From contig JAIDRY010000176.1 in assembly GCA_029061465.1 (NCBI GenBank), positions 1 to 56,047 on the forward strand: a DNA stretch of 56,047 nucleotides, written 5' to 3'. Both the position numbers and the translations under genes were made by a program. Under the pieces are notes generated by a model that was not told where the DNA came from, did not search any database, and saw only the letters and a program-made list of their open reading frames with translations. The DNA comes from Clostridia bacterium. Lineage in GTDB: Bacteria > Bacillota > Clostridia > Christensenellales > Borkfalkiaceae. Shown here in pieces: positions 32,572 to 56,047 of the stretch; positions within the stretch are counted from its first letter, which is position 1; every line of letters begins with the position of its first letter.

Positions 32572-32606
32572 GTAACGCAAGTTGAACTGCAAAAGTTTGG
32601 CTTGCT

Positions 32607-34339: not shown

Positions 34340-34396
34340 GTATCCTTATTCGGACAGGCGGTTTTCTATTTTACCGCGCCCTTATAGCTTTGAATA

Positions 34397-34639
34397 CTAT
34401 GTTCTCTTTTCATTGCATGTTCCTCCTTCTGAGTTATTTGTATTCAGTTGTTCTTTTAATGCTGTCCAGCCCACATAAATAAGCTGGACTTTTTGTATGC
34501 GGTTGGCTTTAAGGAACTTGTTCAATTCCTCAAAGTCTTCGCGTTTCATTGAGGTTCCCCAAACCGCGTGGGCGGCTTTGCGTTCCTCTTTGTGTTTGTC
34601 TTCGTAACGTTTGTCTATTTCCGACTTCGGTTGTTTCAT
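34397..34639 (-). CDS. small basic hypothetical protein (mobile-element associated)
   Basis: 80-aa ORF that overlaps the upstream TnpV-like gene by 4 nt. No motif recognised. Confidence 0.4.
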   Translation of the reverse strand: MKQPKSEIDKRYEDKHKEERKAAHAVWGTSMKREDFEELNKFLKANRIQKVQLIYVGWTALKEQLNTNNSEGGTCNEKRT

Positions 34640-35010
34640 ACGACTTCCTCCGTATAAATTAGTTCGCTTAAAATTTCTTCTTCGATTGCGTGTTGCAGAG
34701 CGGTCCGTCTGCGGTAATCTTCCATAAACTCACCCGTCCGTTTGTACTGCGGAGAGAGGGAGAGTTTTGCGTAGAGGACGTTGTACATATCCTCGGCTTG
34801 CTTGTCCACGCCGTGAAGATAGGCGGGAAGGTCGGCTATCGTCCAGTCGAGTCCTTTGTCTTCCAGATATTTGTGTTTGAGCGTTCCGTACTTGCCGTAA
34901 ACGTGCTTTTGCGGTTTCACAAGTTGTTGATACCGTTTGATTTCGTCTATGGTCAATCCCTCGTTTCTTTCGGTTTTTGCCAATAATTTTTTGTCTGTCA
35001 TCTTCTGCAA
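34636..35010 (-). CDS. tnpV: TnpV-like transposon-associated protein
   Basis: 124 aa. The pattern YGKYGTLKHKYLEDKG...YLHGVDKQAEDMYNVLYAKL...ALQHAIEEEILSELIY resembles the TnpV proteins of clostridial mobilisable transposons. Confidence 0.55.
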   Translation of the reverse strand: MQKMTDKKLLAKTERNEGLTIDEIKRYQQLVKPQKHVYGKYGTLKHKYLEDKGLDWTIADLPAYLHGVDKQAEDMYNVLYAKLSLSPQYKRTGEFMEDYRRRTALQHAIEEEILSELIYTEEVV

Positions 35011-42289: not shown

Positions 42290-42290
42290 T

Positions 42291-44498
42291 ATGGAAGAGA
42301 AAATAATAAAACAGATAAAAACTCAATGCCCTTTTCCGCTGTTGATTTATAAGACGCGTATTAAGTATAACGAAGTGCGTAAAGCTTCGGGCATAGCATA
42401 TATTCTATTAGAGCTTATCACCAAGCAACGTTCGGATATGCGTTTTCGTGAAGCATTGTTAAAATTCGGAATACCGGCAGAACTTCACAGTTTGTTTGGA
42501 AGTGAACTTGCTGGCTTAGTCAATAATGAAATAGTTCAGGCAAACTATCCTGCATCGCACTTTGCAAATCCTAAATATTTCGGTGAAATCCAAGTCAACG
42601 ACGTTACTCTTACTGTTAAGGGACAAAAACTGTTCCGCGAGGGCGCAATTCCTACGGGACAGGAGAAGGAAAGGCCAAAGGATATTTATTTCAGTCCCGT
42701 AACGCGTAAATTCGAAGTGCAGTATAATATGCCGTATTCGCCGATTTCCGGTAGTTTTTTGGGCGAGGAGTTTTTGGACAAAGTAGATATTGATATCAGC
42801 GGTTTAGAAGATTATATTAATGCGAATCCCACGAAATTAGGATTGAAAGCCGAAGAGCGTATGATATCTTTTGCAACGGACGAACCGCAAAAAATGAATG
42901 TCCGAAAAGAAGATAACATCACTTTAAATATCTACCCGTCGTTTATAGAGTTTATGTTTGCTGATTCGGCAGAAAGGGCATTCTTTGATAAATATTACTC
43001 TTCTTCGATAATGACGAATGGTATGACCATGAAAGATAAGTTTAAATTCCCTAAGTTAAATGGGAATTTGCTGTCTGTTAATATAACGGATATACGCAAT
43101 CTTACTGCGCTTTATTTACCTAACGAGCTAACCAAACAGGCAGGGCGGCAATGTGTAATATTCTTGCATAGAGGTAATGCGGGTTTAGAACGTGACGATG
43201 TGATTTGCGCGGACAAGCGGTTTGCTTGTGAATTACTTGATAAAATAGACAAAAATGCGCAATTCGCGTTGTTGGACAAGTCAGGGTGCAAAATTTTTTG
43301 TGCGGTAAATGTAGTTATGCCGTGCAAGAATTTCGGAGATGTGCTTACTCTACCACTTTTGACAGAAAGCAATGCGTCCCTCGAAACGTTCCGTGGAATA
43401 GTTGACTGTCTCTATAATGAATACGCAGAAAAACCGTTCGACGACGATGTCGGCAAGGTTGTGTCGTACGCAGTTGAGAGCTTGGGTAATACTGAATACT
43501 TCGGTAAAATAATCAAGAAGAAATTGCAATCGGTAGTCAGGGTGGATGAACGGATAGAAATATTATTAAAGCTGAATTCGGCTTTCAAAAAATATCCATC
43601 GTGGAAAAATGACTTTACGGAAGCGGCTATCGGGCTTTATAACGAAAGCGTGAGCGAAGTTAAAATTGAAAATATCATTTATAAAAATACTGTTTTGACT
43701 CCGCTGAAAGGTGCCCTGCAAATTTCCAATTCGGAATACGTTCGCAAGTTTTCTGAAAACATTTGTAAAACCGAATCCAAAGAAATTGTTTACGAAGCAC
43801 TTGATTCTGCGGGCTTTACCGATATGGAAACACTGTCGGTTGCAAACGTAATAGAAACGTTTATGTCAAACGTTTTAGCAAGAGAAGTAATTGCTTCCGA
43901 AACCGTGCTTGCTTCCAAATATAAGACGGTACATACAAATCTTTGGAAGTTGTGTGATATGCTTGGTATTGAAAACAGCGCGGAATATACCTTGCGCGAA
44001 GATTACAATACAGATGACTTCTTTAATGCCTACGCCACGCTACAAAACGTAATAAAAGCAGTAGAGAAATATAGACCTTTTGCGCCCAAAGAATATGAAT
44101 TATTGGGGCGATATCTTGAGATATTCGAGCCGATTCACGAGCTTTTGTCTATCGAATGTACCGCTTCGGCAAATCCCGAAAAGATTACAAAAAAATATAT
44201 TGACGATTATATCACAAGAGGAAAGTATAAGGACGCAATTTGCGATTTGCTTGTAAAGCTGCAATATGATTTAAGAAAACTTTTGCAGGCAGACAGAGAA
44301 ACGCAAGCCAACGAACTTATTGATATGGCGCTTAACGAAAAGCTTATTTCTAAACCGCAAGTTGATGTGTTACATAAACTGCGTATGTGCAGAAACGGTT
44401 TTCAACATCCCGAGCGAAAACAAATTCCGTTCGATAAACCCACAATAGAAAATTGGCGAGATATCGTATTTATGTTAGGAGGGAAAAATGAGTCATAG
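42291..44498 (+). CDS. 735-aa uncharacterised protein with C-terminal RNxxxH (HEPN-like) motif
   Basis: The start lies 1 nt after the helicase stop, with an AGGAG SD. No known N-terminal domain recognised. The C-terminal helical region ends in LHKLRMCRNGFQHPE, where R701-N-G-F-Q-H706 is encoded at 44391..44408. Confidence 0.6.
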   Translation: MEEKIIKQIKTQCPFPLLIYKTRIKYNEVRKASGIAYILLELITKQRSDMRFREALLKFGIPAELHSLFGSELAGLVNNEIVQANYPASHFANPKYFGEIQVNDVTLTVKGQKLFREGAIPTGQEKERPKDIYFSPVTRKFEVQYNMPYSPISGSFLGEEFLDKVDIDISGLEDYINANPTKLGLKAEERMISFATDEPQKMNVRKEDNITLNIYPSFIEFMFADSAERAFFDKYYSSSIMTNGMTMKDKFKFPKLNGNLLSVNITDIRNLTALYLPNELTKQAGRQCVIFLHRGNAGLERDDVICADKRFACELLDKIDKNAQFALLDKSGCKIFCAVNVVMPCKNFGDVLTLPLLTESNASLETFRGIVDCLYNEYAEKPFDDDVGKVVSYAVESLGNTEYFGKIIKKKLQSVVRVDERIEILLKLNSAFKKYPSWKNDFTEAAIGLYNESVSEVKIENIIYKNTVLTPLKGALQISNSEYVRKFSENICKTESKEIVYEALDSAGFTDMETLSVANVIETFMSNVLAREVIASETVLASKYKTVHTNLWKLCDMLGIENSAEYTLREDYNTDDFFNAYATLQNVIKAVEKYRPFAPKEYELLGRYLEIFEPIHELLSIECTASANPEKITKKYIDDYITRGKYKDAICDLLVKLQYDLRKLLQADRETQANELIDMALNEKLISKPQVDVLHKLRMCRNGFQHPERKQIPFDKPTIENWRDIVFMLGGKNES

Positions 44499-45600
44499 TG
44501 TTGAAATAGATTATCAAGGGCTTGCAATTCAATGCAATAGTGTTTGTGAAGTTGCGGAAAAACGATTGCAAGAGTTGGACGAAATGATTGCAAAAGCAGA
44601 GAGCGCTTCAAGCCGTTTATTAAACGACCAATCTGCACAATTTGTCAAAATGATTTATGAAGAAAGAAAACGACTGGAAAAACAAATCAAAGCCGTTCGA
44701 CAAAGTGCTGAGGGAAAAGCTAAGCGCGGAGTTGTGCGTGTTGATAATGAAAGTGCAGAATATAGACATTCGAACGACAATATTCTGGCTGCGGGGAATT
44801 TGCAACACACCATTGACGAGCTTGCTTCTAAACGATTGATTGAATTTCAAAGTCTTTTGCAAACCCTTTTAGGTGAAAGTATACAAGAACACCAGCGTAA
44901 ACTGCGTGAACAAACTAACGGTGCAATAACGGTTGATTCTCACACTCAATCACACTTGGACAAGATTGAAGACGAGGTTCTTCGCCAGTTTACTTATCTT
45001 GCATATTTGAATGACAATACACTTTCGGGCGATGAATTGTTGCAAGCGGGACAAGTGCTTATGATGCAGAGAGTAAATCAAACTTATGAAGAGCGTTATG
45101 AACAAGAACGTGCAAAAATCCGTGCCGAACTTGAAGCTTCGCGTGTTGCCCCCGAAACGGTGGATAAAGTGCTGAATAAAACACAAGGCACGGCACAAGA
45201 AAAACTTACGTCAATTCGCCAAAATGCTACTGCCGAAATTGTCGGTGAAAAGGTGCGTCAGAAGTCGCTTAAAATTATAATGGACGCTATCAAACAACGT
45301 GGATTTGTTGTTGACAAGAAGAACGTTAAAATTAAACGAGATACAAATGAAGTTGTTTTGGTTGCATTAAAGGCAAGCGGAGAAAAAGCGGAGTTTCGAA
45401 TATTCCTCGATGGTAAATTCATTTACGATTTCCATGGTTATGAGGGACAGGCTTGTCAAAAGGATATAGAACCGTTTATGCACGATTTGGAAGAAGTATA
45501 CGGCATAAAAGTAACCAAACAAACAGAAATCTGGAGCAATCCTGATAAAATTTCTACTATGAAGTATCAGGCAATAAACACCAATAAGAATAAAAGATAA
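44488..45600 (+). CDS. 370-aa coiled-coil protein with small C-terminal alpha/beta module
   Basis: Its ATG overlaps the upstream stop by 11 nt, with a GGAGGG SD. Long heptad-rich, Gln/Glu/Lys-rich helices span aa ~20-260. The C-terminal ~100 aa read IMDAIKQRGFVV...EFRIFLDGKFIYDFHGYEGQACQKDIEPFMHDLEEVYGIKV. Confidence 0.55.
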   Translation: MSHSVEIDYQGLAIQCNSVCEVAEKRLQELDEMIAKAESASSRLLNDQSAQFVKMIYEERKRLEKQIKAVRQSAEGKAKRGVVRVDNESAEYRHSNDNILAAGNLQHTIDELASKRLIEFQSLLQTLLGESIQEHQRKLREQTNGAITVDSHTQSHLDKIEDEVLRQFTYLAYLNDNTLSGDELLQAGQVLMMQRVNQTYEERYEQERAKIRAELEASRVAPETVDKVLNKTQGTAQEKLTSIRQNATAEIVGEKVRQKSLKIIMDAIKQRGFVVDKKNVKIKRDTNEVVLVALKASGEKAEFRIFLDGKFIYDFHGYEGQACQKDIEPFMHDLEEVYGIKVTKQTEIWSNPDKISTMKYQAINTNKNKR

Positions 45601-45611
45601 GGAGAAATATA

Positions 45612-47444
45612 ATGGCACTTACTACAACCTTTAACAGATTAAGACGTGAAATTGGTATTAAAAGATGTGTAATCGTTGAGGGAAACGTCGGCGACGTTTA
45701 TTTAAATGAGAAGAAACAAATAGTTGACTTGAAGCAGTATCTTATGGATATGCTTAAAGCTATTGACTACGATGATGTGCTTTATTGGGATAGAATTGAC
45801 GGTGTGGACGGAGACATATCTCGCCTTTCGGTTATCGATGAAGTGGAAGTAGAGGGTGAAGCTTATGTCTTTTATGATGAAGACGATAAGTCAGAAAAAG
45901 AACAAAAGACAGGCAGCGGACTTTTCAAAGAGCCCGCCGAGATATTTAATATCATTTTTAAAAATTTGAAAAAGCCCAACCGCAAAACCGCATTTGTTTT
46001 GAACTGGGCAGATTATTTGTTTACGACGGGTGGGCAACTGCCGCCCGACGAGCGTGAACTTATTACGCTTCTTGGGAAAGCAATCAAGGATAAAAAAGTT
46101 GACTATCTTTCTGCTGAAGTGAATGAAAGTACAATCGTACTCATTACGAGCAAGCTTGCTATGTTCCCGATATCGTTCTATCAGGGCAATCCCGAAGTGT
46201 CTTGTCTCACGCTTTCAAAGCCCGACAGAGAAGAACGCGAAAAAATGATGGATAAAGTGGAAAGCGGATTTGAGGTTAAGTTAAAACCCGGCGAAACACT
46301 TATGACTTGCGAAAAGAAGAATGAGTATATCGATATGCTTGATGATTTTACAAACCGTGAAATTATTCAGCTTGCGAGACTTTCACGCAAAGAGGGTAAA
46401 ATGCCATTTGAACAGTTATATCTGTTGTTCAAGTACGGTGAAAAGGATAACCCTTGGGAAAAACTTGACTATAAGGCTGTAAAAGATATTAAGAAAATTC
46501 TTGCCGAGCGGGTAGTCGGACAGGAAGAAGCCATCGAAAAAATTGAGAAAGTCGTTGTGAAGGCGTATATGGGGCTTACCGGAATCCATAAATCTTCCAG
46601 TCGTTCCGCGCCCAAAGGTGTGTTGTTCTTCGTCGGTCCTACCGGTGTTGGTAAAACCGAACTTTCAAAAGCTCTTGCAAAATTTCTGTTCGGTGACGAG
46701 CAGGCTTGTATTCGCTTTGATATGTCAGAGTATGCGCAGGAAAACAGTGACCAAAAGCTTATCGGTGCGCCTCCCGGATACGTGGGATATGAAGAGGGCG
46801 GTCAGCTTACAAATGCAGTAAAAGAAAAGCCGTTCAGTATTATTCTGTTCGACGAGATAGAAAAAGCAGCAAAGCCTAATCCCCGTATTTTGGATATTTT
46901 CTTGCAAATTCTTGAAGACGGACGTCTTACCGACAGTAAGGGTGAAACGGTTTATTTCAGTGAAAGCGTTATTATCTTTACGTCAAACCTCGGCGCTTCG
47001 GAAGTGGCTTCGGGCGGTTCCAACGAACAGGTTGCCAAGGAGTTTATTGATATTGTCAAAAACTATTTCGACAATGAAATCAAGCGCCCCGAAATTTTGG
47101 GACGTATCGGTTACAGCAATATAGTTCCGTTCAATTTCATCAAAGACAGGGATTTTACCGTTAAAATAGCAAAATCAAAACTTCGTCCTGTTCAGAAAGC
47201 GATTCTCGAAAAATATAGGATAGACCTAATTTTTGAAGATGAACTGAAATTTATTGACTATATTTTGGGCGGTGCGGATAGCAGTAAGGGTGGTCGTGAT
47301 ATTCTTAATGCAATCAATGATAAGCTTTTGGACGAGCTTGCAATGTTTATGTTCGAAAACAAGCAGGATTTATCGTCGTTCAAGGGCGCAAAAATCGTAG
47401 TCAGCGTATCGAAAGATAAACTGCATTTTGAATTTGATGATTAA
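45612..47444 (+). CDS. AAA+ ATPase with Clp/Hsp100 D2-type module and degenerate N-terminal AAA-like domain
   Basis: The C-terminal half is colinear with ClpB/ClpA D2: VVGQEEAIEKI, Walker A GPTGVGKT (46635..46658, K348), IRFDMSEY, GAPPGYVGYEEGGQLT, Walker B ILFDEIEKA (D414/E415), ILEDGRLTD, sensor-1 IIFTSNLG. The N-terminal ~290 aa lack Walker motifs. Confidence 0.85.
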   Translation: MALTTTFNRLRREIGIKRCVIVEGNVGDVYLNEKKQIVDLKQYLMDMLKAIDYDDVLYWDRIDGVDGDISRLSVIDEVEVEGEAYVFYDEDDKSEKEQKTGSGLFKEPAEIFNIIFKNLKKPNRKTAFVLNWADYLFTTGGQLPPDERELITLLGKAIKDKKVDYLSAEVNESTIVLITSKLAMFPISFYQGNPEVSCLTLSKPDREEREKMMDKVESGFEVKLKPGETLMTCEKKNEYIDMLDDFTNREIIQLARLSRKEGKMPFEQLYLLFKYGEKDNPWEKLDYKAVKDIKKILAERVVGQEEAIEKIEKVVVKAYMGLTGIHKSSSRSAPKGVLFFVGPTGVGKTELSKALAKFLFGDEQACIRFDMSEYAQENSDQKLIGAPPGYVGYEEGGQLTNAVKEKPFSIILFDEIEKAAKPNPRILDIFLQILEDGRLTDSKGETVYFSESVIIFTSNLGASEVASGGSNEQVAKEFIDIVKNYFDNEIKRPEILGRIGYSNIVPFNFIKDRDFTVKIAKSKLRPVQKAILEKYRIDLIFEDELKFIDYILGGADSSKGGRDILNAINDKLLDELAMFMFENKQDLSSFKGAKIVVSVSKDKLHFEFDD

Positions 47445-47982
47445 GTTTAACATTGCAAGTATCAATCAATGTACCGAAGTAGAAGGACCGTATAAAAGAC
47501 TATGCATTTGGTTTCAAGGTTGCAATATTCACTGCAAAGGATGTTGTAATCCTGATTACCAGCCGCTCGTGCCGAAGAATATACTTTCGCTTGACAAATT
47601 AATTTTGATTATAGCTGAAGCAAAAGAAAAATTCGGAATAGAGGGAGTAACCTATTCGGGTGGAGAGCCCACTTTGCAACAAAGTTTGTCTCAGCTTACC
47701 GAAGAGATACATAAGCTTGGGTTAGGCGTTATATCGTTTACAGGTAGAAACTACGAGGAAGTAAAAGAAGTTTTGTGCGGTTGTGATGCAGTATTGGACG
47801 GAGCTTTCATCAAGGAATTGCCCGAAACAAAGCGCCGTATACTCGGTTCTTCAAATCAGCGCATATTATGTTTAACTGATAGATATAAAGATTGTATTGA
47901 TAGGTGGTTTACAAGTATCGGATTAAAGACAGAAGAAATTAATGTCGGCAATAGTATAGTAGTGAACGGTGATAAGTTTTGA
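47437..47982 (+). CDS. NrdG/PflA-type radical-SAM activase-like protein (4Fe-4S single-cluster family)
   Basis: EGPYKRLCIWFQGCNIHCKGCCNP, with CxxxCxxC encoded at 47521..47544. SAM-binding-like GVTYSGGEP. C-terminal NrdG-like LDGAFIKE...ILGSSNQRIL. The ATG at 47437 overlaps the upstream stop (ATGATTAA). The ORF track uses an upstream TTG at 47428. Confidence 0.8.
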   Translation: MIKFNIASINQCTEVEGPYKRLCIWFQGCNIHCKGCCNPDYQPLVPKNILSLDKLILIIAEAKEKFGIEGVTYSGGEPTLQQSLSQLTEEIHKLGLGVISFTGRNYEEVKEVLCGCDAVLDGAFIKELPETKRRILGSSNQRILCLTDRYKDCIDRWFTSIGLKTEEINVGNSIVVNGDKF

Positions 47983-48011
47983 CATTAAAAAGGATAATAT
48001 TCTAAATATTA

Positions 48012-48055
48012 GGTGCAGATAACTGTTATAAGCGGTTGTCTGTACCTTTAATTTT
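48012..48055 (+). terminator. intrinsic terminator closing operon A
   Basis: 12-bp stem: GGTGCAGATAAC (48012..48023) pairs with GTTGTCTGTACC (48035..48046), including two G-U pairs. TTTAATTTT follows. Confidence 0.75.
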
Positions 48056-48163: not shown

Positions 48164-48183
48164 AAGCGGGAAACCCGTTTTTT
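48164..48183 (+). terminator. small hairpin plus T-run (second, orphan terminator)
   Basis: AAGCGGG-AAA-CCCGTTT followed by TTT(T). The stem is 7 bp with one G-U pair and the loop is only 3 nt, so the call is weak. Confidence 0.35.
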
Positions 48184-48248
48184 ATATCACTACAGTGATA
48201 TATGTTTGTCGACAAATATTGACTTTGTAAGTTTTCTTATGATATAAT
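48183..48248 (+). promoter_or_regulatory. promoter of operon B with two upstream palindromes (C-box-like operators)
   Basis: Palindrome TATATCACT-AC-AGTGATATA (48183..48202). Perfect palindrome TTTGTCGACAAA (48205..48216). -35 TTGACT (48219..48224), 18-nt spacer, -10 TATAAT (48243..48248). The ATG at 48256 lies only 7 nt after the -10 box and has no SD. Confidence 0.6.
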
Positions 48249-48255
48249 AAATTTT

Positions 48256-48471
48256 ATGAAATCAACTTCATTTTTCGAAACAAAATTAAAACATATCAGA
48301 ACAGCAAAAGGCTATTCTCAAAAGCAACTTGCTGAACTATCAGGTGTGAGCCTACGCTCCATACAAATGTATGAGCAGCGACGAAAAGATATAAACAAAG
48401 CTCAGTCTGATTCGCTGTACCACTTGGCGAAAGTTCTCTGTTGCACAATGGAAGACTTACTGGAAGAATAG
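48256..48471 (+). CDS. small XRE-family HTH protein, controller (C) protein-like
   Basis: 71 aa with HTH YSQKQLAELSGVSLRSIQMYEQRRKDINKAQ. It is the first gene of an RM-like operon and appears leaderless. Confidence 0.7.
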   Translation: MKSTSFFETKLKHIRTAKGYSQKQLAELSGVSLRSIQMYEQRRKDINKAQSDSLYHLAKVLCCTMEDLLEE

Positions 48472-48536: not shown

Positions 48537-49196
48537 ATGAAATGTCTTTATGAGTTAAATGTTGAGCAGCTTTATAAACTAGTTGAAGAAGATTTGAGCC
48601 TTGATGGCTGGATTATCTGGAACGAGACCCTTGCGAAGCGAACGGAGTCCGCGCGAGAGCTTAAGCGGTTTGATATTATAAAAGATAAAGCAATCGAACA
48701 AGGTTTTATTAATATTGATAATGAAATTGTTACATGGTTTGATACTTTAACTATGTTATACCGTTCGCTCAAAAATATCAGTGATTTAGAATTAAAAGAC
48801 AATTTAAAAATATTCCAAGAATTCCGTATGCCGTATTCTCGAAGAAGAGCAGATTATGTGCTTGTATATGATAACAAAATTTTAATTTTAGAGTTTAGTT
48901 TTGATAAACTTGGATATGCGCAGAAATATGAAGACAAATTACAGCAGGCAAGTAGTTACAAAGAAATACTAGGAGTATTTTTACCAAAAGAAATAGATAT
49001 AGGCACATATACATTTTTGATTGATCCAGACGAAGATAAAGACGGCAGATTTATTTACGATCCAGAAACCAAACGTCGAGTAAATGATGATAAAGTAGAA
49101 GAACTGGCAACAGTGATAGTAAAATTTTTCAAAAAGAATTTAAAGTCGGCATATAACGCATTAAAGCATTTAGATTATGGCGATGGGAATGGGTAA
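48537..49196 (+). CDS. hypothetical protein with PD-(D/E)xK-like core pattern
   Basis: 219 aa. FQEFRMPYSRRRADYVLVYDNKILILEFSFDK fits the E...D...(E-x-K) layout of restriction-endonuclease-fold domains. The final triad reads E-F-S, with a K four residues later. Confidence 0.4.
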   Translation: MKCLYELNVEQLYKLVEEDLSLDGWIIWNETLAKRTESARELKRFDIIKDKAIEQGFINIDNEIVTWFDTLTMLYRSLKNISDLELKDNLKIFQEFRMPYSRRRADYVLVYDNKILILEFSFDKLGYAQKYEDKLQQASSYKEILGVFLPKEIDIGTYTFLIDPDEDKDGRFIYDPETKRRVNDDKVEELATVIVKFFKKNLKSAYNALKHLDYGDGNG

Positions 49197-49242: not shown

Positions 49243-52200
49243 ATGCTAAAAATAGGATTATACGAACAAGTCATAAATAAGCTATTGGATAAAGAGCTGT
49301 CCGAAAATGAAGATAAGCTCAGTCAGACTGCGCATATCGATGAAGGCGAAGCATCTAAAATTCTTTCACAATATATAGCTGAAATTATAGAAAAGGGGCT
49401 TGATTATGTCCACGATAAAGGCGGAAATGTTCAAGACCAAATTCAACTTATAAATCGAATTGTCTCAACAATTATTTCGGAAACAAAAGAGGCGGACTTT
49501 AATGAGCTATCAGTTGCAGAGCGTGCTGAACAACTTTTAGCACTCTTGAATAAAAGGGATACTATCTTAGCAATTAATGAAAAGGCGGAAATAGTTCGTC
49601 CCGAAACATCAATTGCTCAGAGTTCGCTTTTTACTGGAGCAATTAATGAACCTCAGATGTTCAACGAATTGAATAAGGAAATTGTTTCAAGCGATAGAAT
49701 TGATATGCTGGTTTCCTTTATAAAGTGGAGCGGATTGAGGCTCATTATCGACGAGTTGAAAAAATTTACTCAACGCGGTGGAGAACTTCGTATAATAACA
49801 ACTTCGTATATGGGTGCTACCGACATAAAGGCAGTAGAAGAGCTTAGTAAGCTTCCCAATACAAAAATTAAAGTCAGCTACGATACAAAGCGTACACGTC
49901 TTCACGCAAAAACTTATGTATTTTATCGTGATACAGGTTTTACGACCGCATATGTAGGTTCTTCCAACCTTTCAAATGCAGCAATATCGTGTGGCCTGGA
50001 ATGGAATGTTAAGGTAACAAGAAAGGACTTGCCAGAAACTATAGCAAAAATTAAGGCAACATTTGAGAGCTATTGGAATTCAAACGAGTTTGAATTTTTC
50101 TCGGAAGGGCAGAGGGATCGTCTTGTACATGCGTTAAAAGCTGAAAAGTTTTCGGATAGTAATAGTGAGAAATTATATACATTTGACATATCGCCATATT
50201 CATACCAGCAAGAAATATTGGACAAGTTGGAAGCGGAACGAACAATTCATGGGCGCCATCGCAATTTAATTGTTGCGGCGACGGGGACAGGTAAAACAGT
50301 TATTTCAGCATTTGATTATAAAAGGTTTAAGAATCAAAATTCTAATAATGCTTGCAAATTATTGTTTGTTGCACATAGAGAAGAAATCTTGAATCAGAGT
50401 ATAGAAACATTTCGTGGGATTTTGAAGGATGCGAACTTTGGTGATCTATTTGTAGGCAATTATAAACCTGAATCCATTGATAATCTGTTTATATCAATCC
50501 AGACATTTAATTCGCAAGATTTTACTTCTAAGACTAGCCCAGACTTTTATGATTATATAATTGTCGATGAATTTCATCATGCGGCGGCTCCCACATACCA
50601 AAAGTTACTTACATATTATAAGCCTAAAATACTGCTAGGTTTAACCGCCACGCCTGAACGTATGGATGGCAAAAACATATTGGAGTATTTTGGTAATAGT
50701 ATTGCGGCAGAAATCAGGCTTCCTGAAGCTATTGATAGGAAATTGCTTTGTCCTTTCCAATATTTCGGTGTAACAGATATTGTTGGCCTCGATGATATAA
50801 AGTGGAGTAGAGGCGGCTACGATAAGGATGAGCTATCCAATATTTATACGATAAACGAAGAAACCGCAGTGCGTCGTGCCGACTACATAATTGCATCAAT
50901 TTTGAAATATGTGACTGATATAGATGAAGTTAAAGGACTTGGATTTTGTGTATCAATTGAACACGCGAAGTTCATGTCAAATTATTTTAATAACCACGGT
51001 ATCCCTTCAATGTATCTTGTTGGCAGCTCGTCAGATGATGAAAGAAAGAGCGTAAAGAAGAAGCTGGTAAACGGAGAAATTAGATTTATCTTTGTTGTTG
51101 ATATTTATAATGAGGGTGTAGATATCCCTGAGGTTAATACTGTCTTATTCCTTCGGCCCACTGAGTCGTTGACAATATTTTTGCAACAGCTCGGACGCGG
51201 CTTACGTCTTTCAGAAGGGAAAGAATGTTTGACGGTACTTGATTTTATTGGACAAGCAAATAAGAGATATAATTTTGAAGATAAGTTTGCGGCTCTTTTA
51301 TCAAATACTACCCGCAGTATTCAACGCGAAATAAAAGACGGCTTTGTATCTGTTCCTAAGGGATGTTATATCCAACTTGAAAAGAAAGCGCAGAAATACA
51401 TTTTAGAAAATATTCGCGCGTCGTTAAATTCGAAGAGTGGTCTATTGGCAAAAGTTAAAACATTTGAAACCGAAAGCGGGTTAAAGCTTTCGTTAATAAA
51501 TTATATCCATTATTATCACATCGATGTAAGGACGATCTATAATAAAAAATTAACATTTTATTCAATGTGTGAGCAGGAAGGGTTATGGCAATCAACTGAC
51601 CATATTTTTGATGATCCATTTAGAATTTTATTTCACTTTTGTTGTGTTGACTCAATTAAATGGATTAATTTTGTTTTATCTGAATTGCGAAATGGAGAAT
51701 TCAATAAATTGAATTCTTATAACGAAGAACAACAATTAATGGTTAAAATGTTATACTCCTCAATCTGGGATAAGACTCCTAAAACAGAAGGATTTATTGA
51801 TGAAATAGAAGCGTTAAACTTTTTGTTTAAAGATAAATACTTTATTGAAGAACTTATAGAATTGCTTTGCTTATGTAAGAAAGATGTAAATATTGTTGGG
51901 CGAGATCCTGAATTGGATTATATTTGTCCATTAGAAGTGTACTGTACTTATACTCGCGATCAAGTGCTGGCTGCGTTAGGATTCAACGAGGATTATACTG
52001 TTTCGGAAGGTGTCAAGTATTTTAAGGATAAAAATACAGATGTACTGTTTACAACACTTAATAAAACAGATAAGTTTTATTCTCCGACTACAGCATATAA
52101 TGATTATTCGATTAATGAAGAACTGTTTCACTGGCAAAGTCAAAGTACAACATCAGACACTTCATTAACCGGGTTAAGATATATAAATCAAGATAATAAC

Positions 52201-52389
52201 AGTAACAACATATTACTTTTTGTGCGTGAACAAAAGTCAGATAAATTTGGGCCACAGCCTTTTATTTTCCTTGGTAAAGTACATTATGTTCAGCATGAGG
52301 GAAGTAGACCTATGAACATAGTTTGGCAATTGGATAATAATATACCAGCTAAATTTTTATCAAAAACAAATAAATTAATTTTGGGATAA
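49243..52389 (+). CDS. SauUSI-like enzyme: PLD (HKD) nuclease + SF2 helicase + C-terminal DUF3427
   Basis: HKD motif RLHAKTYVFYRDTGFTTAYVGSSNLS (H221, 49903..49977). Walker A AATGTGKT (50275..50298). DEFHH box (50566..50580). Motif VI QQLGRGLRL. The C-terminal ~250 aa follow the DUF3427 pattern (FHWQSQSTTS..., ILLFVRE, PFIFLGKVHYVQHEGSRPMNIVWQLDN). Confidence 0.85.
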   Translation: MLKIGLYEQVINKLLDKELSENEDKLSQTAHIDEGEASKILSQYIAEIIEKGLDYVHDKGGNVQDQIQLINRIVSTIISETKEADFNELSVAERAEQLLALLNKRDTILAINEKAEIVRPETSIAQSSLFTGAINEPQMFNELNKEIVSSDRIDMLVSFIKWSGLRLIIDELKKFTQRGGELRIITTSYMGATDIKAVEELSKLPNTKIKVSYDTKRTRLHAKTYVFYRDTGFTTAYVGSSNLSNAAISCGLEWNVKVTRKDLPETIAKIKATFESYWNSNEFEFFSEGQRDRLVHALKAEKFSDSNSEKLYTFDISPYSYQQEILDKLEAERTIHGRHRNLIVAATGTGKTVISAFDYKRFKNQNSNNACKLLFVAHREEILNQSIETFRGILKDANFGDLFVGNYKPESIDNLFISIQTFNSQDFTSKTSPDFYDYIIVDEFHHAAAPTYQKLLTYYKPKILLGLTATPERMDGKNILEYFGNSIAAEIRLPEAIDRKLLCPFQYFGVTDIVGLDDIKWSRGGYDKDELSNIYTINEETAVRRADYIIASILKYVTDIDEVKGLGFCVSIEHAKFMSNYFNNHGIPSMYLVGSSSDDERKSVKKKLVNGEIRFIFVVDIYNEGVDIPEVNTVLFLRPTESLTIFLQQLGRGLRLSEGKECLTVLDFIGQANKRYNFEDKFAALLSNTTRSIQREIKDGFVSVPKGCYIQLEKKAQKYILENIRASLNSKSGLLAKVKTFETESGLKLSLINYIHYYHIDVRTIYNKKLTFYSMCEQEGLWQSTDHIFDDPFRILFHFCCVDSIKWINFVLSELRNGEFNKLNSYNEEQQLMVKMLYSSIWDKTPKTEGFIDEIEALNFLFKDKYFIEELIELLCLCKKDVNIVGRDPELDYICPLEVYCTYTRDQVLAALGFNEDYTVSEGVKYFKDKNTDVLFTTLNKTDKFYSPTTAYNDYSINEELFHWQSQSTTSDTSLTGLRYINQDNNSNNILLFVREQKSDKFGPQPFIFLGKVHYVQHEGSRPMNIVWQLDNNIPAKFLSKTNKLILG

Positions 52390-52393
52390 GCAT

Positions 52394-53635
52394 ATGAGAA
52401 TAGTAGACTTGTTTTCGGGGGCCGGTGGGTTAACATTCGGGTTTTATTATAAATTAGACAACGGTAGATTTGTTAAAAAGGATAATGCAATAATATTTGC
52501 TAATGAATTTAACAAAAATGCTGCAGCTGCTTATAAAAAAAATTATACTAATGTAAATATGATTGTTGGCGATATCCGTGAAGTTCTCACTGACGAATTA
52601 ATTAGAGAAAAGATAGGGAATGAGGAAGTTGACTTAATTATTGGTGGACCACCTTGTCAATCGTTTAGTACGGTTGGTAAAAGAATATATGATGAAAAGG
52701 CTAAGCTTTTTTGGGAGTATTTGCGACTTATTAGAGTAGTAAGACCGAAGATGTTTTTATTCGAAAATGTAAAAGGTTTATTATCTATGAAAGAGGTATT
52801 CTATAAAAAAGATGAGAATGGAGAAATTTTAAAAGAAAAGAAGCAAATTGGGCATGAAGGTGGAAAACAAAGGACAATAGAAGTTCCAATTGTTGACCAT
52901 TATGGCAAAAAAATTATAGATATCATTAAAAAAGAATTTGGGGATGTAGATAAAGATCTTGGATATGATATTGAATCACAAGTGGTAGATGCGGTGAATT
53001 TCGGTGTGCCTCAAAATAGACAGCGTGTGGTTATTTTAGGAGTACGTAAAGATTTGGGGGTTAAAATTCCAAAATTTGAAAGTGGTAACAAAACTGAATT
53101 GACAATTAGAGATGCGATTTCTGATTTGCCAGTTGTTAACGAAGGCGAAGAAATAAAGTGCTATGATTGTAAACCTCAAAATGTTTATCAAAGATTAATG
53201 CGAGGGGATAATAAAGTATTGCGAGATCACAGCTGTGGAACTTATGGGGATAAAATTCGAACTGTTATACAACATGTAAAACAAGGGCAAGGTCGAAACG
53301 ATTTTAATGCTTTAGTTGATGCAGGGAAAATAGATAAAAAGTATTATTTAACTTCTGGCTATAAAAATACTTATGGTAGGCTTGAAGAAAATAAACCGTC
53401 TACTACTATAACGAATAATTTATCTACGCCTTCAGGATTAAGATGTATTCATTATTCACAAGATAGGGCGCTGACATCGCGTGAAGGTGCTAGAATACAA
53501 TCATTCCCAGATTGGTTTTATTTTGAAGGAAAAAGCAGGGCAGAAATAAATACACAAATCGGTAATGCCGTGCCACCATTAATGGCAATGGCGATAGCAA
53601 GAATAATTGAAAAAGTTTTAGGGGGAGGTAATTAA
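52394..53635 (+). CDS. dcm: DNA (cytosine-5)-methyltransferase
   Basis: Motif I DLFSGAGGLTFGF. Motif IV GGPPCQSFS (catalytic Cys codon 52655..52657). Motif VI ENVKGL. Motif VIII QNRQRV. Motif X GNAVPPLMA. Its start lies 4 nt after the upstream stop. Confidence 0.93.
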   Translation: MRIVDLFSGAGGLTFGFYYKLDNGRFVKKDNAIIFANEFNKNAAAAYKKNYTNVNMIVGDIREVLTDELIREKIGNEEVDLIIGGPPCQSFSTVGKRIYDEKAKLFWEYLRLIRVVRPKMFLFENVKGLLSMKEVFYKKDENGEILKEKKQIGHEGGKQRTIEVPIVDHYGKKIIDIIKKEFGDVDKDLGYDIESQVVDAVNFGVPQNRQRVVILGVRKDLGVKIPKFESGNKTELTIRDAISDLPVVNEGEEIKCYDCKPQNVYQRLMRGDNKVLRDHSCGTYGDKIRTVIQHVKQGQGRNDFNALVDAGKIDKKYYLTSGYKNTYGRLEENKPSTTITNNLSTPSGLRCIHYSQDRALTSREGARIQSFPDWFYFEGKSRAEINTQIGNAVPPLMAMAIARIIEKVLGGGN

Positions 53636-55840
53636 ATGAGTGATAATCAAAAAATCCTTTATGAAGCAAGAAAAGAGGCTAATGAGGAAGATCTCAAAAA
53701 AGAAAGGGAGAGAATAAGAAAATTAAATACTGAAAATGCTATCTATTTCAATTTTTCTTATACTGCATTAAAAATGCTTGGGAAAAACTTGTATAATAAT
53801 CCGTTGTCGGCAGTAGCAGAATTAGTCGCAAATGGTATTGATGCTAAGGCGAAGGATATTTATGTTTACATAGATATGTCGGATAAACAACATTCTACAA
53901 TAGAAATCATTGATAATGGAACCGGTATGAGCTATGATGATTTAGCTGAAAAATATGTCTGGGTTGGAAGAAATAAGAGGCAAGACGAAGCTTTATCATC
54001 CGAAGACAAAGAAGTTATTATGGGCAGAAAAGGTATAGGAAAACTTGCCGCTTTATATCTCTCGAGTAGATATTATATTTTTTCTAAAAAAGATAATGTA
54101 GAATCTCGATGGTTTTTAAATGTTGCTGCATATAAAGATTCTGATTTTCCTAAACTTGATAGATTATCTTCAAGTAAAACAATTGCCAGCCAAGCTGTAT
54201 GGTCGCAAAATAATAGTGGCACCGCTATAATATTGGAAAATGTTGATCTACGGCGAACGGGAAGTAAGAAAATCGAGGGGTTGAAGCGTAATTTATCAGA
54301 TTATTATTTAATTGATGCAATAGGTACAAAAATTTGGGTTGCTGTAGTATCTAAAAAGGGACAGAGAATTGTTTTTGATCCAGTAAAAAAAGCAGTAGCA
54401 TATAAGAATTTTTATGCGATATATGATAATACCAATTATAAAATTGCTGAAAAAATTAGAGATAGTATATCGTTTACCTGGTTATCCCAATTTGAGCATA
54501 TTAAGAATGAAGAAAGGCCTACAATAGTGTTGCCGGCATCACAATTTGTGACATCAGGTGAAGCAGATTTCCAACGAGAGGATGGTACAAAAACAAAGAA
54601 AAGTTATGAGTTGAAAGGTTGGATTGGGATTCACGCAACGATAGATTCAAAGGATGCAGTAGATGTAAATTTTATAAGGAATGAAATTTATCATCCAAAT
54701 AAATTGCGTATATATGTTAGAAACAAGTTGGCAGTAGCAAACTATTTTGATATGCGTGAAAGTACTCAGACTATGGCCAATTATATAGAAGGGGAAATCT
54801 CTTTTGATATCTTGGATGATGATGATTTACCGGATATTGCGACATCAAGCCGACAAGATTTCTTAGATGATGAACGAGTTGAGAAGCTTGTTGAACTTGT
54901 TGACCCAATTATAAGTACTTTGTTTAAATTGAGGAATAAAATAGGACAGCAGATTCGAGCTGAAAATAATGAATATATTGAAGAGCTTAAAGAAATAGAA
55001 CGAAGAAAAAAAGAAGAGGCAGAAAGAGCCCAAGCAGAAGCAGAAAGGTTAGCAAGAGAAGAGTTTGTCAAAAGAGAGTTGGCAGAGCAAAAAGTTCAGG
55101 AGGAAAAGCGCAAGAGGTTACTTGCCGAACAAGAAAAGAATTTTGCTAAAAACCAAACATACTTTTTGGAAAAGCAACTTTCTGGTGATGATAAAACAAG
55201 AGCATATAATACGCATGTTATAAAAAGCAATGCAAATAACATAAGTGATAATTTAGTAACACTACTTGAAGATCATCCAGAATGTAAAGATATTGATGAA
55301 ATCAGGGCCATTTCAATAGCAGATCAAAAAATATTAACTGCTGTAAAATATTATAATAGTGTAATGTATGGGTTAGAGAATAAAATAATAAAGGGAAATA
55401 TCTTAAAATTCATCAAAGACTATGTAGAAGAAGTTTTAAAAAAAGAGTACTTAAGTATGGAAGTTCTATTAGCAAATCCGATAGATTGTATATTTAGCTT
55501 TCCGCCACAGGATTTAACTACTTCTTTAGAAAACATTTTCTCAAATGCAGCAAAGCATGAAGCGAATAAACTTAAAATTAGTTTTGATAGAGAAGCGGAT
55601 TGCATTATTATTAGGTTTTCAAATAATGGTGAACGCCTTCCGGAAAATTGTGACACAAAACAATTATTTGAGTTTGGTTATTCCACGACAAGCGAATCTG
55701 GAGTTTCAATTGGTACTGGAGTTGGGTTATATCAAATTTATGATCTTATTGTTGAAGATTTAGGCGGTAATGTTGACATCTTTAATGATAAAGATAATGG
55801 AGTTACACTGGAGATAAAAATTTATGAAGATAAACTATAA
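53636..55840 (+). CDS. protein with two GHKL ATPase modules: N-terminal MORC/Hsp90-like and C-terminal histidine-kinase-like, joined by a charged coiled coil
   Basis: The N-terminal module has Bergerat motifs ELVANGIDA, IIDNGTGMSYDDL and GRKGIGKLAALY. A central EERRKKEEAERAQAEAERLAREE coil follows. The C-terminal module has an N-box ENIFSNAAKH and a G2-like GTGVGLYQIYDLIVEDLGG. Its ATG directly abuts the dcm stop. Confidence 0.7.
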   Translation: MSDNQKILYEARKEANEEDLKKERERIRKLNTENAIYFNFSYTALKMLGKNLYNNPLSAVAELVANGIDAKAKDIYVYIDMSDKQHSTIEIIDNGTGMSYDDLAEKYVWVGRNKRQDEALSSEDKEVIMGRKGIGKLAALYLSSRYYIFSKKDNVESRWFLNVAAYKDSDFPKLDRLSSSKTIASQAVWSQNNSGTAIILENVDLRRTGSKKIEGLKRNLSDYYLIDAIGTKIWVAVVSKKGQRIVFDPVKKAVAYKNFYAIYDNTNYKIAEKIRDSISFTWLSQFEHIKNEERPTIVLPASQFVTSGEADFQREDGTKTKKSYELKGWIGIHATIDSKDAVDVNFIRNEIYHPNKLRIYVRNKLAVANYFDMRESTQTMANYIEGEISFDILDDDDLPDIATSSRQDFLDDERVEKLVELVDPIISTLFKLRNKIGQQIRAENNEYIEELKEIERRKKEEAERAQAEAERLAREEFVKRELAEQKVQEEKRKRLLAEQEKNFAKNQTYFLEKQLSGDDKTRAYNTHVIKSNANNISDNLVTLLEDHPECKDIDEIRAISIADQKILTAVKYYNSVMYGLENKIIKGNILKFIKDYVEEVLKKEYLSMEVLLANPIDCIFSFPPQDLTTSLENIFSNAAKHEANKLKISFDREADCIIIRFSNNGERLPENCDTKQLFEFGYSTTSESGVSIGTGVGLYQIYDLIVEDLGGNVDIFNDKDNGVTLEIKIYEDKL

Positions 55841-56047
55841 CATTTTATGGGTAGAAGACTATCCAAAAGATATGGAAAAACAATTAAACAGAATAGAAAA
55901 AGTACTGAAGAATAACTTTTTTCTTATTAATGGAAAAGATAAACCTATTACTTCATATGAAAAATTTTTAGAATTTATTAAAAATAAAACAGAAAAAGAT
56001 TTTAGTGATATCGATCTAATTTTAATAGACTATAATCTATCTAGTAA
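55824..56047 (+). CDS. receiver (REC)-like domain protein, 5' part only (runs off window)
   Basis: The ATG at 55824 overlaps the upstream gene by 17 nt. The translation MKINYNILWVEDYPKDMEKQ...DFSDIDLILIDYNLSS has the REC layout: an acidic pair after beta1 (ED) and an Asp at the end of beta3 (LILID). Confidence 0.5.
   Translation, partial: MKINYNILWVEDYPKDMEKQLNRIEKVLKNNFFLINGKDKPITSYEKFLEFIKNKTEKDFSDIDLILIDYNLSS

Follow-up and report, generated by a model that had tools for sequence, protein, structure and literature searches.

SauUSI of Staphylococcus aureus (PDB 7CLG; Xu 2011, Tumuluri 2021) unites in one chain a PLD nuclease, an SF2 ATPase, a helical coupler and an SRA-like reader, and its target context is S5mCNGS. 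According to Xu 2011, a MutT/NUDIX gene is linked to SauUSI and to 60 or more of its relatives (PMC3141236); near SauUSI no companion methylase was found. BwiMMI and EfaL9I (DUF3427-DUF3883; Lutz 2019, PMC6765204) are DUF3427 enzymes whose defence island also holds an adjoining C5 methylase, and their coexistence with C5 methylases has been ascribed to different sequence contexts (PMC6765204, section 31). CglI and NgoAVII are described as encoding a PLD nuclease together with an SF2 helicase-like ATPase and a C5 methylase (PMC7913695). In these systems the R and H subunits are separate, the reader is B3-like and Z1/C accessory domains are present. The TCS-like module of Bellieny-Rabelo 2021 (PMC8011034) consists of a C5 methylase, a HATPase_c_3-HEF_HK-HATPase_c protein and a Response_reg_2 protein; the published set is mostly from Proteobacteria and is a computational prediction only. 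Single systems of MORC/paraMORC proteins, SFII helicases and cytosine methylases were predicted by Iyer 2008, with an N-terminal HKD domain on a few of these helicases (PMC2292703).

The window analysed here (the whole stretch of 56,047 nucleotides, from a Clostridia bacterium) encodes on its plus strand a SauUSI-family type IV enzyme of 1048 aa (49243..52389), as identified from the open reading frame, Pfam, PADLOC and an alignment to 7clg. With domain limits that we drew from this alignment and Pfam, the chain comprises a family-specific N-terminal extension (residues 1-144), the PLD nuclease (145-290), the SF2 ATPase (291-680), the coupler (681-895) and the SRA-like reader (DUF3427; 896-1048). 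Pfam matches are PLDc_2 (150-278, E 8.8e-14), ResIII (316-473, E 1.7e-39), Helicase_C (562-656, E 2.1e-13) and DUF3427 (859-1038, E 2e-25); RE_NgoFVII also matches the PLD domain, and the translation contains HAK...GSSNLS, AATGTGKT, DEFHH and QQLGRGLRL. The PADLOC model mREase_IV (PDLC03659) covers residues 115-1038 with E 1.7e-219, and SauUSI itself (7clg_A) gives E 3.1e-87 in a match restricted to residues 145-776. Compared with SauUSI, the enzyme has about 100 extra N-terminal residues, its reader is barely similar in sequence and a C5 methylase lies 4 nt downstream. BwiMMI and EfaL9I share the adjoining C5 methylase but differ in having a PD-(D/E)XK nuclease and no helicase, and in a neighbour formed by a predicted GATC-specific methylase with Sau3AI/MutH-like nucleases instead of a GHKL-kinase module (PMC6765204). 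Unlike CglI and NgoAVII, the window enzyme is a single chain, and its reader is SRA-like.

Compared as one sequence, the C-terminal reader reaches only 2.8 bits against SauUSI. A profile of 40 C-terminal sequences has the SauUSI reader (801-919) as its sole PDB match (E 7.3e-5), and an AlphaFold model of the reader (pLDDT 85) has SauUSI as its top Foldseek match (E 1.5e-6), followed by SUVH6/5, AspBHI, MspJI, LpnPI and UHRF1. Comparison of the DUF3427 region with the SauUSI pocket, the check suggested earlier, aligns F936, D954 and W964 with F841, D858 and W868; D954 and W964 are conserved in 117 of 119 clusters. Judging from the model, the reader domain looks intact, its fold resembling SauUSI and then the SRA 5mC readers.

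The nuclease gene stops at TAA 52387-52389, and after GCAT the ATG at 52394 opens a C5-cytosine DNA methyltransferase gene (Dcm; 52394..53635, plus strand, 413 aa). It matches PF00145 (E 6.6e-67) and TIGR00675 dcm (200.5 bits against a cut-off of 100.65). No second PF00145 gene was found in the MAG. The translation contains FSGAGG, PPCQSFS, ENV, QNRQR and GNAVPP, which we take to be the numbered hallmark motifs. Its variable region matches none of the solved methyltransferases. The E-values rule out chance as the source of the predicted domain identities of nuclease and Dcm. The sequence-only reading had described a 1048-aa PLD/SF2-helicase/DUF3427 protein of SauUSI type with an SRA-like reader and, 4 nt after its stop, a complete Dcm; protein, family assignment, methyltransferase and junction are all confirmed.

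The TAA of Dcm (53633-53635) is followed directly, with a 0-nt gap, by the ATG at 53636 of a 734-aa GHKL protein (53636..55840, plus strand; Pfam, NCBIfam), and GGGGGAGG just upstream of this ATG provides a strong Shine-Dalgarno sequence. The protein has a paraMORC-like HATPase_c_3 head (57-181), a coiled coil and a histidine-kinase-like HATPase_c tail (625-729); H527, N633, N637, G665 and G693/695/697 are invariant across 32 relatives, and Pfam and NCBIfam reveal no recognisable nuclease domain. Enzymes of the HgiDII/BbrUII restriction family partner with a C5 methylase. Only the N-terminal part of the GHKL protein matches the NCBIfam model of that family (NF050001; residues 40-475 against profile positions 5-404, E 7.7e-47), and its 160 bits fall short of the cut-off of 550. 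In place of the last 255 profile positions the protein has the coiled coil and the kinase-like ATPase. The GHKL stop is overlapped by 17 nt by the 5' part of a receiver-domain effector gene (55824..56047, plus strand), of which 74 codons precede the contig end. Full-length relatives of its product measure 308-379 aa; the closest (P0362, 55% identity) is modelled with a CheY-like N-terminal fold, and an RNxxxH motif is conserved in the C-terminal domain of these effectors. In gene order and architecture the row agrees with the TCS-like module (PMC8011034) and the paraMORC systems of Iyer 2008 (PMC2292703), except that HEF_HK and Response_reg_2 were not detected in the window module at E up to 10.

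Relatives show that the two parts can be separated. In L094 (59% identity) and L112 (55%), the nearest Dcm relatives for which DNA is readable, Dcm is followed by a GHKL homologue and no nuclease homologue is present; L112 carries the full trio of Dcm, GHKL-kinase and receiver protein. Related GHKL-kinase and receiver rows come with nucleases or partners of their own: HNH in L117 and L010, and Pfam HEF_HK and Response_reg_2 with a C5 methylase in L116. Conversely, among 80 loci of nuclease relatives (57-77% identity) a C5-methylase homologue occurs in one, and 77 contain neither a Dcm nor a GHKL homologue. PF00145 was found in none of 127 downstream proteins from 68 loci, nor in the 58 upstream proteins scanned of 118 listed. 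A NUDIX_4 gene lies downstream in 27 of 65 full-length nuclease loci, as in the family of SauUSI (PMC3141236), and the slot between nuclease and NUDIX gene holds various inserts: a BglII-like nuclease (L006), a CoiA-like protein (L014), Wadjet JetABCD (L025, L065) and small unknown ORFs. GHKL modules directly follow the nuclease in at least two separate clades, one with the window and L027, the other with L010. Nearer to the window, of the 18 nuclease clusters that reach 78% identity, at least 11 co-occur with relatives of the window Dcm or GHKL protein, by a proxy of equal-sized contigs instead of observed gene order. The adjacency, whose lack of conservation was said to weaken the sequence-only reading, is not conserved family-wide (1/80 loci) but apparently is in the window sub-clade by the same proxy.

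We consider it probable, with modest confidence, that the locus holds two separable defence modules, placed head to tail in one transcription unit and coexisting through different contexts. Dcm most likely belongs to the adjacent, separate module rather than to the nuclease, and nuclease and Dcm would therefore probably coexist by reading different sequence contexts. The first module would be the 1048-aa enzyme, working on its own as a type IV nuclease of SauUSI type. Its SRA-like reader would flip out a modified cytosine that stands in one particular context; base flipping would activate the SF2 translocase, and cleavage by the PLD domain would follow. The second would consist of Dcm, the GHKL/histidine kinase and the receiver-effector. 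Dcm would mark host DNA at its own motif and serve this module, not the nuclease; the paraMORC-like head is proposed to sense the DNA state, and the kinase-like tail, with the invariant H527, to phosphorylate the receiver domain of an effector of about 335 aa. We propose that the modules coexist because the nuclease reader does not recognise the Dcm-methylated context. Combined, they would cover unmodified invaders (second module) and cytosine-modified invaders (first module). Among the explanations offered earlier, the assignment of Dcm to the GHKL protein is best supported, by the 0-nt junction, the Shine-Dalgarno sequence, L094 and L112 without nuclease, and the published module architecture. 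Disjoint specificities are plausible, the argument being already in print for DUF3427 enzymes beside C5 methylases (PMC6765204). To call the pairing self-defeating was an overstatement, as DUF3427 proteins often stand beside methyltransferases according to the literature.

The nuclease has diverged unevenly in the window lineage. Compared with other family members, the window PLD and helicase domains are 86% and 77% identical, but the coupler and reader (51283..52386, plus strand) only 38% and 61%, against 64% and 78.5% among the others. At columns conserved to at least 95%, the window enzyme departs at 16 of 54 in the coupler and 10 of 79 in the reader, and L027 at 13 of 54 and 12 of 77; W926Y, D945F/Y and M951A are derived residues common to both. 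In both C5-methylase-linked enzymes coupler and reader are thus far more diverged than nuclease and helicase. The L010 nuclease, which stands beside an adenine methylase, shows a single departure across all conserved columns, in the helicase; its 53 coupler and 77 reader columns are free of departures, and it is 91% identical to the module-free L008. The divergence in the window lineage is consistent with tuning to the Dcm context. The divergent reader type is present in 60 of 119 clusters, most of them without a visible gene context, and apparently extends beyond methylase-linked enzymes.

Several of these observations count against two modules and for one integrated system, in which the PLD-helicase would be the DNA-cutting arm of a Dcm/paraMORC-kinase/receiver system, the Dcm mark would protect self, and the remodelled coupler and reader would tie the nuclease to the GHKL sensor or interpret the mark as 'self'. 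The 4-nt gap between genes on one strand, followed by no terminator-like site on that strand, is tighter than chance juxtaposition; there are the linkage proxy and the GHKL modules in two nuclease clades; a nuclease domain is not recognisable in the GHKL protein, whose effector gene is cut here; and coupler and reader are remodelled in C5-methylase-linked enzymes only. In addition, reader distance tracks Dcm distance (r 0.87-0.90, against 0.66-0.73 for the helicase, 12 pairs), a weak argument because kin among the 12 pairs are not independent. The single-system prediction of Iyer 2008, with its partly HKD-fused helicases, also weighs against two modules (PMC2292703). We nevertheless regard an integrated system as unlikely, given the nuclease-free modules of L094 and L112, the 77 loci without either partner and the L010 nuclease, which is essentially that of L008. 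Moreover, nucleases of about 90% identity occur with a GHKL protein of 70%, one of 86% with a GHKL protein of 87%, and nucleases of 90% with a Dcm of 80% or 97%, and module alleles accordingly look swapped rather than co-diverged.

Less probable still is plain juxtaposition at an insertion hotspot, in which the module would have entered the variable slot 3' of the nuclease and since been carried along on a single mobile island, without functional tuning, compatibility being luck or one partner silent. The many inserts accepted by the nuclease-NUDIX slot and the commonness of the divergent reader type, which also counts against two tuned modules, speak for it, as does the gene row's position in a low-GC island adjoining a tRNA-Leu; a search of 36 same-genus genomes did not recover this region. 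However, the divergence is domain-specific, not uniform, and full length is kept by Dcm across 74-97% and by the nuclease across 78-91% identity; the 18 nuclease clusters with at least 78% identity are without exception full length (1047-1048 aa), which argues that the enzyme is maintained alongside Dcm. From the linkage proxy and the coupler and reader divergence, the association of nuclease and methylase appears to be no accident. A classical two-gene restriction-modification pair, with a DUF3427 reading unmodified DNA and Dcm as cognate protective methylase, is very improbable: the 4-nt spacing, the RE_NgoFVII match and the precedent of ATP-dependent CglI and NgoAVII (PMC7913695) favour it, but the reader model keeps the SRA fold with three aligned pocket residues, leaving the earlier suggestion of such a reader without support, 79 of 80 family loci lack a methylase, Dcm appears translationally coupled to its GHKL neighbour and accompanies GHKL genes at other loci, and the CglI-type reader is B3-like and on a separate subunit.

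A consensus scan provided the promoter-like and terminator-like sites. The best promoter-like site (48219..48248, plus strand; TTGACT, an 18-nt spacer and TG-extended TATAAT, 11/12 matches) is preceded by terminator-like sites at 48011-48047 and 48164-48180, and none follows on the plus strand from 48431 to the contig end. That nuclease and Dcm share an operon, as claimed earlier, is an inference. Between promoter and nuclease lie two genes. A 219-aa protein without family assignment (48537..49196, plus strand) has no match in Pfam or NCBIfam, a weak PADLOC PDC-S41 match (2.4e-8) and only sub-threshold NERD and SLFN-helicase leads in the ESM Atlas, and was not found next to the nuclease relatives. 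The other gene encodes an Xre/Cro-type HTH protein of 71 aa (48256..48471, plus strand; HTH_3, E 3.7e-8), with PADLOC matches to capH (1e-7) and, weakly, to RM control proteins. It is possibly the regulator of the gene row, and contig C220 of the same MAG has a copy with 79% identity at the head of a further defence row.

The final 8 kb of the window hold a row of genes, all on the + strand, which opens with an HTH protein (48256-48471) and a family-less 219-aa ORF (48537-49196) that has a weak PADLOC PDC-S41 match. These are followed by the 1048-aa nuclease (49243-52389), assigned by Pfam, PADLOC and its match to SauUSI, a complete C5 methyltransferase (Dcm, 52394-53635), a 734-aa GHKL protein recognized by Pfam (53636-55840) and a receiver-gene ORF, which starts at 55824, shares its first 17 nt with the end of the GHKL gene and runs off the contig. 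Pfam, the translation and our reading of the junction bear out the sequence-only reading that a complete C5 methyltransferase lies 4 nt downstream of the nuclease stop. The GHKL gene in turn has its ATG directly after the Dcm stop codon, and GGGGGAGG lies just 5' of that ATG. The 219-aa ORF was not seen beside relatives of the nuclease; its sub-threshold Atlas leads go to NERD and SLFN-helicase clusters.

The source MAG measures 1.73 Mb in 254 contigs (completeness 81%, contamination 3.1%), and the window is its full contig C86. Dcm is the sole PF00145 gene found in the MAG. GC content drops from 0.45-0.50 to 0.32-0.40 between tRNA-Leu (32485-32571) and the contig end, and at the DNA level the region is absent from all 36 same-genus genomes searched, where nothing beyond the HTH gene or stretches of at most 54 nt matched. 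The tRNA-Leu(taa) sits at the GC drop and is adjoined by ORF 33629-34339, which has a phage-integrase N-terminal SAM-like domain, and by the TnpV-like ORF 34636-35010; together this stretch (32485-35010) suggests a decayed integrative element. The upstream part of the island (37703-47982) encodes an MkoA-like SF1 helicase of 1528 aa (PADLOC MkoA, E 6e-93), then two family-less proteins (735 and 370 aa) and a ClpB-like AAA_2 ATPase with PDC-M37B and DolB matches. It also has a small radical-SAM-like protein (184 aa) with weak pVip matches.

All PLD, helicase and DUF3427 motifs and domains that had been read from the 1048-aa protein were recovered by Pfam and in the translation. The N-terminal part is a PLD-family nuclease with HxK (PLDc_2, E 8.8e-14; HAK...GSSNLS in the translation), which aligns to the nuclease domain of SauUSI (7clg). 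The SF2 helicase-like ATPase matches ResIII (1.7e-39) and Helicase_C (2.1e-13) and carries AATGTGKT, DEFHH and QQLGRGLR as motifs I, II and VI, and the C-terminal reader is DUF3427 at 2e-25. The nuclease is matched by PADLOC mREase_IV at E 1.7e-219 and by SauUSI at E 3.1e-87, the strong match with the latter being limited to residues 145-776. Taken as a single sequence, the C-terminal reader has hardly any similarity to SauUSI. A profile built from 40 C-termini (alignment A1) has a single PDB match, the SauUSI reader (E 7.3e-5), and a Foldseek search with the AlphaFold model of residues 780-1048 (mean pLDDT 85) returns SauUSI as the best match (7clg, E 1.5e-6), followed by the SRA domains of SUVH6, SUVH5 and KRYPTONITE and then by AspBHI, MspJI, LpnPI and UHRF1. 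The proposed SauUSI-type architecture is thereby confirmed.

According to the description of the SauUSI structure in Tumuluri 2021 (PMC7913695), the pocket for the flipped 5mC consists of M829, Y831, F841, I842, D858 and W868. Comparison of the window reader with this pocket, which the sequence-only reading had put forward as a check, gives three consistent pairs: both sequence alignments place F936, D954 and W964 opposite F841, D858 and W868, and the counterparts of M829 and Y831 differ between the two. D954 and W964 are retained in 117 of 119 related protein clusters. The simplest account, judged from sequence and predicted fold, is that the nuclease would be a modification-dependent, ATP-driven cutter of the SauUSI type.

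To its 3' side Dcm joins a different set of genes. In the GHKL protein a HATPase_c_3 head (57-181) is followed by a coiled coil and by a HATPase_c tail of the histidine-kinase type (625-729). Invariant across 32 relatives are H527 and the N- and G-box residues (N633, N637, G665, G693/695/697). For the head region, NCBIfam gives a match to the BbrUII/HgiDII restriction-enzyme family (E 7.7e-47). Full-length relatives of the cut-off receiver ORF measure 308-379 aa, the closest being P0362 (55% identity), whose model (pLDDT 81.7) shows a CheY-like receiver fold across the first ~140 residues and a helical domain in the remainder. Foldseek matches are all receiver-domain response regulators, through those N-terminal ~140 residues, and the helical C-terminal domain yielded no fold or family match. 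In the receiver family (P0362 and alignment A2) R155, G156, T162 and S163 are invariant and R270, N271 and H275 near-invariant, with a Cys-rich stretch after them; this RNxxxH motif recalls HEPN RNases, and on that motif the domain may be called HEPN-like. No match to the remainder of the receiver gene was found in the MAG (81% complete) with the receiver protein of locus L112 as query.

The two closest Dcm relatives among those with readable DNA, at loci L094 and L112, both lie beside a GHKL gene, and the nuclease is absent from both. L112 encodes, downstream of histidine-biosynthesis genes, a Dcm relative (55%), then a GHKL-kinase (38%, full length) and then a 348-aa receiver protein; L094 encodes a Dcm relative (59%) and a GHKL protein (38% over residues 28-486) with a TIR-like domain, and is the only close relative found when metagenomes were scanned with Dcm. 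The L094 row (L094:3594-11313) runs through Vsr, an Mrr-like nuclease, a C5 methylase, an HpaII-like nuclease and a second C5 methylase before reaching the Dcm relative and the TIR-like-domain GHKL gene. More distant GHKL-kinase rows include receiver genes (L114, L117) and HNH nucleases (L117, L010), and L116 combines Pfam HEF_HK and Response_reg_2 with a convergent C5 methylase. One of the explanations first offered for the pairing, that Dcm belongs functionally with the GHKL protein, agrees well with the abutting genes and with the recurrence of Dcm and GHKL in L094 and L112; the simplest account is that Dcm serves the GHKL-kinase-receiver module. Against solved methyltransferases the catalytic core alone of Dcm matches, and no target can be inferred from it.

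The wider nuclease family was surveyed through a scan of species-representative genomes, which gave 80 loci with relatives of 57-77% identity. By tblastn (E ≤1e-5) a C5-methylase homologue occurs in a single one of them (L027, on the opposite strand) and a GHKL homologue in two (L010 and L027). PF00145 was absent by Pfam from the 127 proteins encoded by the next two genes downstream in 68 loci, among which the other DNA methylases are an Eco57I-type enzyme (L010) and an N6_N4 enzyme (L016), as well as from the 58 upstream proteins scanned out of 118 listed, which include one D12 adenine methylase (L032). Upstream neighbours are a mixture of defence and housekeeping genes. Downstream, 27 of 65 full-length loci have a NUDIX_4 gene (NudG/MutT-like) no more than 2.5 kb away in the same orientation (e.g. 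L043:11157-11540), often at a gap of 0-2 nt. Genes inserted between the two encode a BglII-like nuclease (L006), a protein resembling CoiA (L014) or, in L025 and L065, a Wadjet set (JetABCD), in which JetA and a JetB-like gene are followed by additional ORFs as far as the NUDIX gene. Two scans for more loci with the window's diverged reader type had four loci from viral collections in common, and the first gave a fifth, all five with a NUDIX homologue just downstream; of the four checked for the reader motif none matched, and they are assigned to neither reader type. Given the mixed neighbours, the general lack of a C5 methylase and the NUDIX link, the family behaves as an autonomous type IV enzyme. 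By analogy with E. coli NudG, one may speculate that the NUDIX gene clears 5-methyl-dCTP.

A different pattern appears close to the window enzyme. In a FastTree phylogeny of 66 nucleases it is sister to L027 (local support 99); the L010 nuclease lies elsewhere and is 91% identical to that of the module-free locus L008. Public assemblies hold 18 nuclease clusters 78-91% identical to the window's, all of 1047-1048 aa. As a proxy for co-occurrence, which does not include gene order, we compared by eye the exact longest-contig sizes across the nuclease, Dcm, GHKL and cluster-member lists. In 11 of the 18 clusters the size is shared with a relative of Dcm and/or GHKL: two sizes are common to all three (11748, 22814), six to nuclease and Dcm (289159, 18593, 8269, 82635, 12306, 30642) and three to nuclease and GHKL (16117, 11616, 58510). 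Members of those 11 clusters add four more matching sizes, with Dcm relatives (28853, 24081, 11191) or a GHKL relative (108041). Among 101 clusters at ≤73% identity one match was seen (7896; nuclease 69%, GHKL 46%). By this proxy, linkage between nuclease and module is not a one-off in the window's sub-clade. The sequence-only reading had said that an adjacency that is not conserved would weaken it: across the family it is not (1 of 80 loci), within the sub-clade it apparently is (11 of 18 clusters, by proxy). Divergence does not run in parallel, since a nuclease of ~90% goes with GHKL at 70%, one of 86% with GHKL at 87%, and one of 90% with Dcm at 80% or 97%. This suggests that module alleles are exchanged at this site.

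The window and L027 enzymes also differ from the rest of their family, depending on the domain (limits set by us: PLD 145-290, SF2 ATPase 291-680, coupler 681-895, reader 896-1048). Compared with the mean over 300 sampled pairs of other members, identity to the others is 86% for both enzymes against 88% in the PLD domain, and 77% (window) and 81% (L027) against 82% in the helicase. The values fall to 38% and 43% against 64% in the coupler and to 61% and 59% against 78.5% in the reader. In alignment columns with conservation of 95% or more among the remaining family members, the window enzyme departs at 16 of 54 coupler and 10 of 79 reader positions and L027 at 13 of 54 and 12 of 77. Five other long-branch enzymes depart at 3-8 of 53-55 and 2-6 of 78-79, and L010, beside its adenine methylase, at 0 of 53 and 0 of 77. 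Derived reader residues common to the window and L027 are W926Y, D945 to F/Y and M951A. Their reader type is far from unusual, being present in 60 of the 119 clusters that are nearest to the window. For 12 nuclease-Dcm pairs, matched by the size proxy, distances correlate with those of Dcm at r 0.87-0.90 for the reader and 0.66-0.73 for the helicase; as the 12 pairs are kin, this mainly reflects shared inheritance.

The simplest account of the locus is that of two separable modules, in which Dcm belongs with the GHKL-kinase-receiver genes and the specificities of nuclease and methylase are disjoint, as two of the original explanations had it. The nuclease reader would then not recognize the context methylated by the neighbouring Dcm, and the locus would be an ordinary defence-island arrangement. 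We regard it as rather unlikely that the nuclease works as part of an integrated Dcm, GHKL and receiver system; linkage conserved in the sub-clade and divergence confined to coupler and reader speak for it, next to which stand the nuclease-free module loci. A more specific form, in which a type IV methyl-reading nuclease was recruited into a methylase-bearing system, and the remodelled coupler and SRA-like reader spare the host's own 5mC by taking the neighbour's mark as 'self' or a cue from the paraMORC/kinase sensor, seems to us less probable still. If true, a modification-dependent enzyme would follow the classical protect-by-methylation logic. The remaining explanation, a reader of unmodified DNA in a classical RM system, is without support because there is no sign of a lost flipping pocket; an SRA fold, three aligned pocket residues and methylase linkage in just 1 of 80 loci speak against it.

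The two modules were also compared with known systems. In the account of SauUSI in Xu 2011 (PMC3141236), no companion methylase was found nearby, the enzyme is toxic in Dcm+ E. coli, and a MutT/NUDIX gene is linked to it and at least 60 relatives. The lack of a companion methylase holds in the wider nuclease family but is broken in the window, where Dcm follows after 4 nt. The NUDIX link, frequent rather than universal, is not seen before the contig end; two NUDIX homologues lie on other contigs of the MAG. In CglI and NgoAVII the R subunit carries a B3-like reader, and the helicase is a subunit of its own with a Z1 domain; the window enzyme, in contrast, is one chain with an SRA-like reader, and no Z1 or B3 family is among its Pfam matches. 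The family-wide methylase linkage expected of such RM systems fails here, being apparent in the window's sub-clade only, by proxy. The Dcm side has the same architecture as an element predicted in Bellieny-Rabelo 2021 (PMC8011034), there described as two-component-like and tied to C5 methylases and paraMORC ATPases: a HATPase_c_3 head and a kinase-type HATPase_c tail occur in one protein, and C5 methylase and receiver-like gene both adjoin the GHKL gene. Pfam HEF_HK and Response_reg_2 are absent at E up to 10 from the GHKL tail and the 74-aa receiver fragment, and at E up to 0.01 from full-length relatives of the window proteins. The paraMORC restriction-modification themes outlined in Iyer 2008 (PMC2292703) take in such a module. 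Against the HgiDII/BbrUII family (NF050001) the GHKL protein scores 160 bits, versus a cut-off of 550, and covers profile positions 5-404 of 659 only.

Each component therefore has a published relative, and coexistence is already argued in print: for DUF3427 enzymes beside C5 methylases, Lutz 2019 (PMC6765204) invokes different contexts in its discussion of them. In the literature searched, no lineage of SauUSI-type enzymes was found to be described that has a remodelled reader and a stable link to a methylase / paraMORC-kinase / receiver module; such cases may be listed in the supplements to PMC8011034 and PMC2292703. The locus adds a Clostridia example of this module, so far predicted by computation only.

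Enzymes of the SauUSI type form a major obstacle to gene transfer, and we know of no account of how their SRA-like readers shift specificity. The sub-clade offers a natural test case, with constant nuclease and helicase, diverged coupler and reader and a permanent C5-methylase neighbour. If the reader is tuned away from the mark of its neighbour, the residues that determine sequence context could be mapped through a comparison of both reader types.

The MAG has a second defence row, on contig C220 (L120:340-7631). Its first gene encodes an HTH protein that shares 79% identity with the one in the window, and further members are genes for an SRA-HNH enzyme (235 aa), SbcCD-like proteins, two DUF488 proteins, DuOB and a NUDIX protein. 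Provided that the binning is correct, this SRA-HNH enzyme and the window nuclease would give the host two putative 5mC readers next to a single C5 methylase. Another NUDIX copy, on contig C41 (L121), adjoins a type IV secretion coupling protein.
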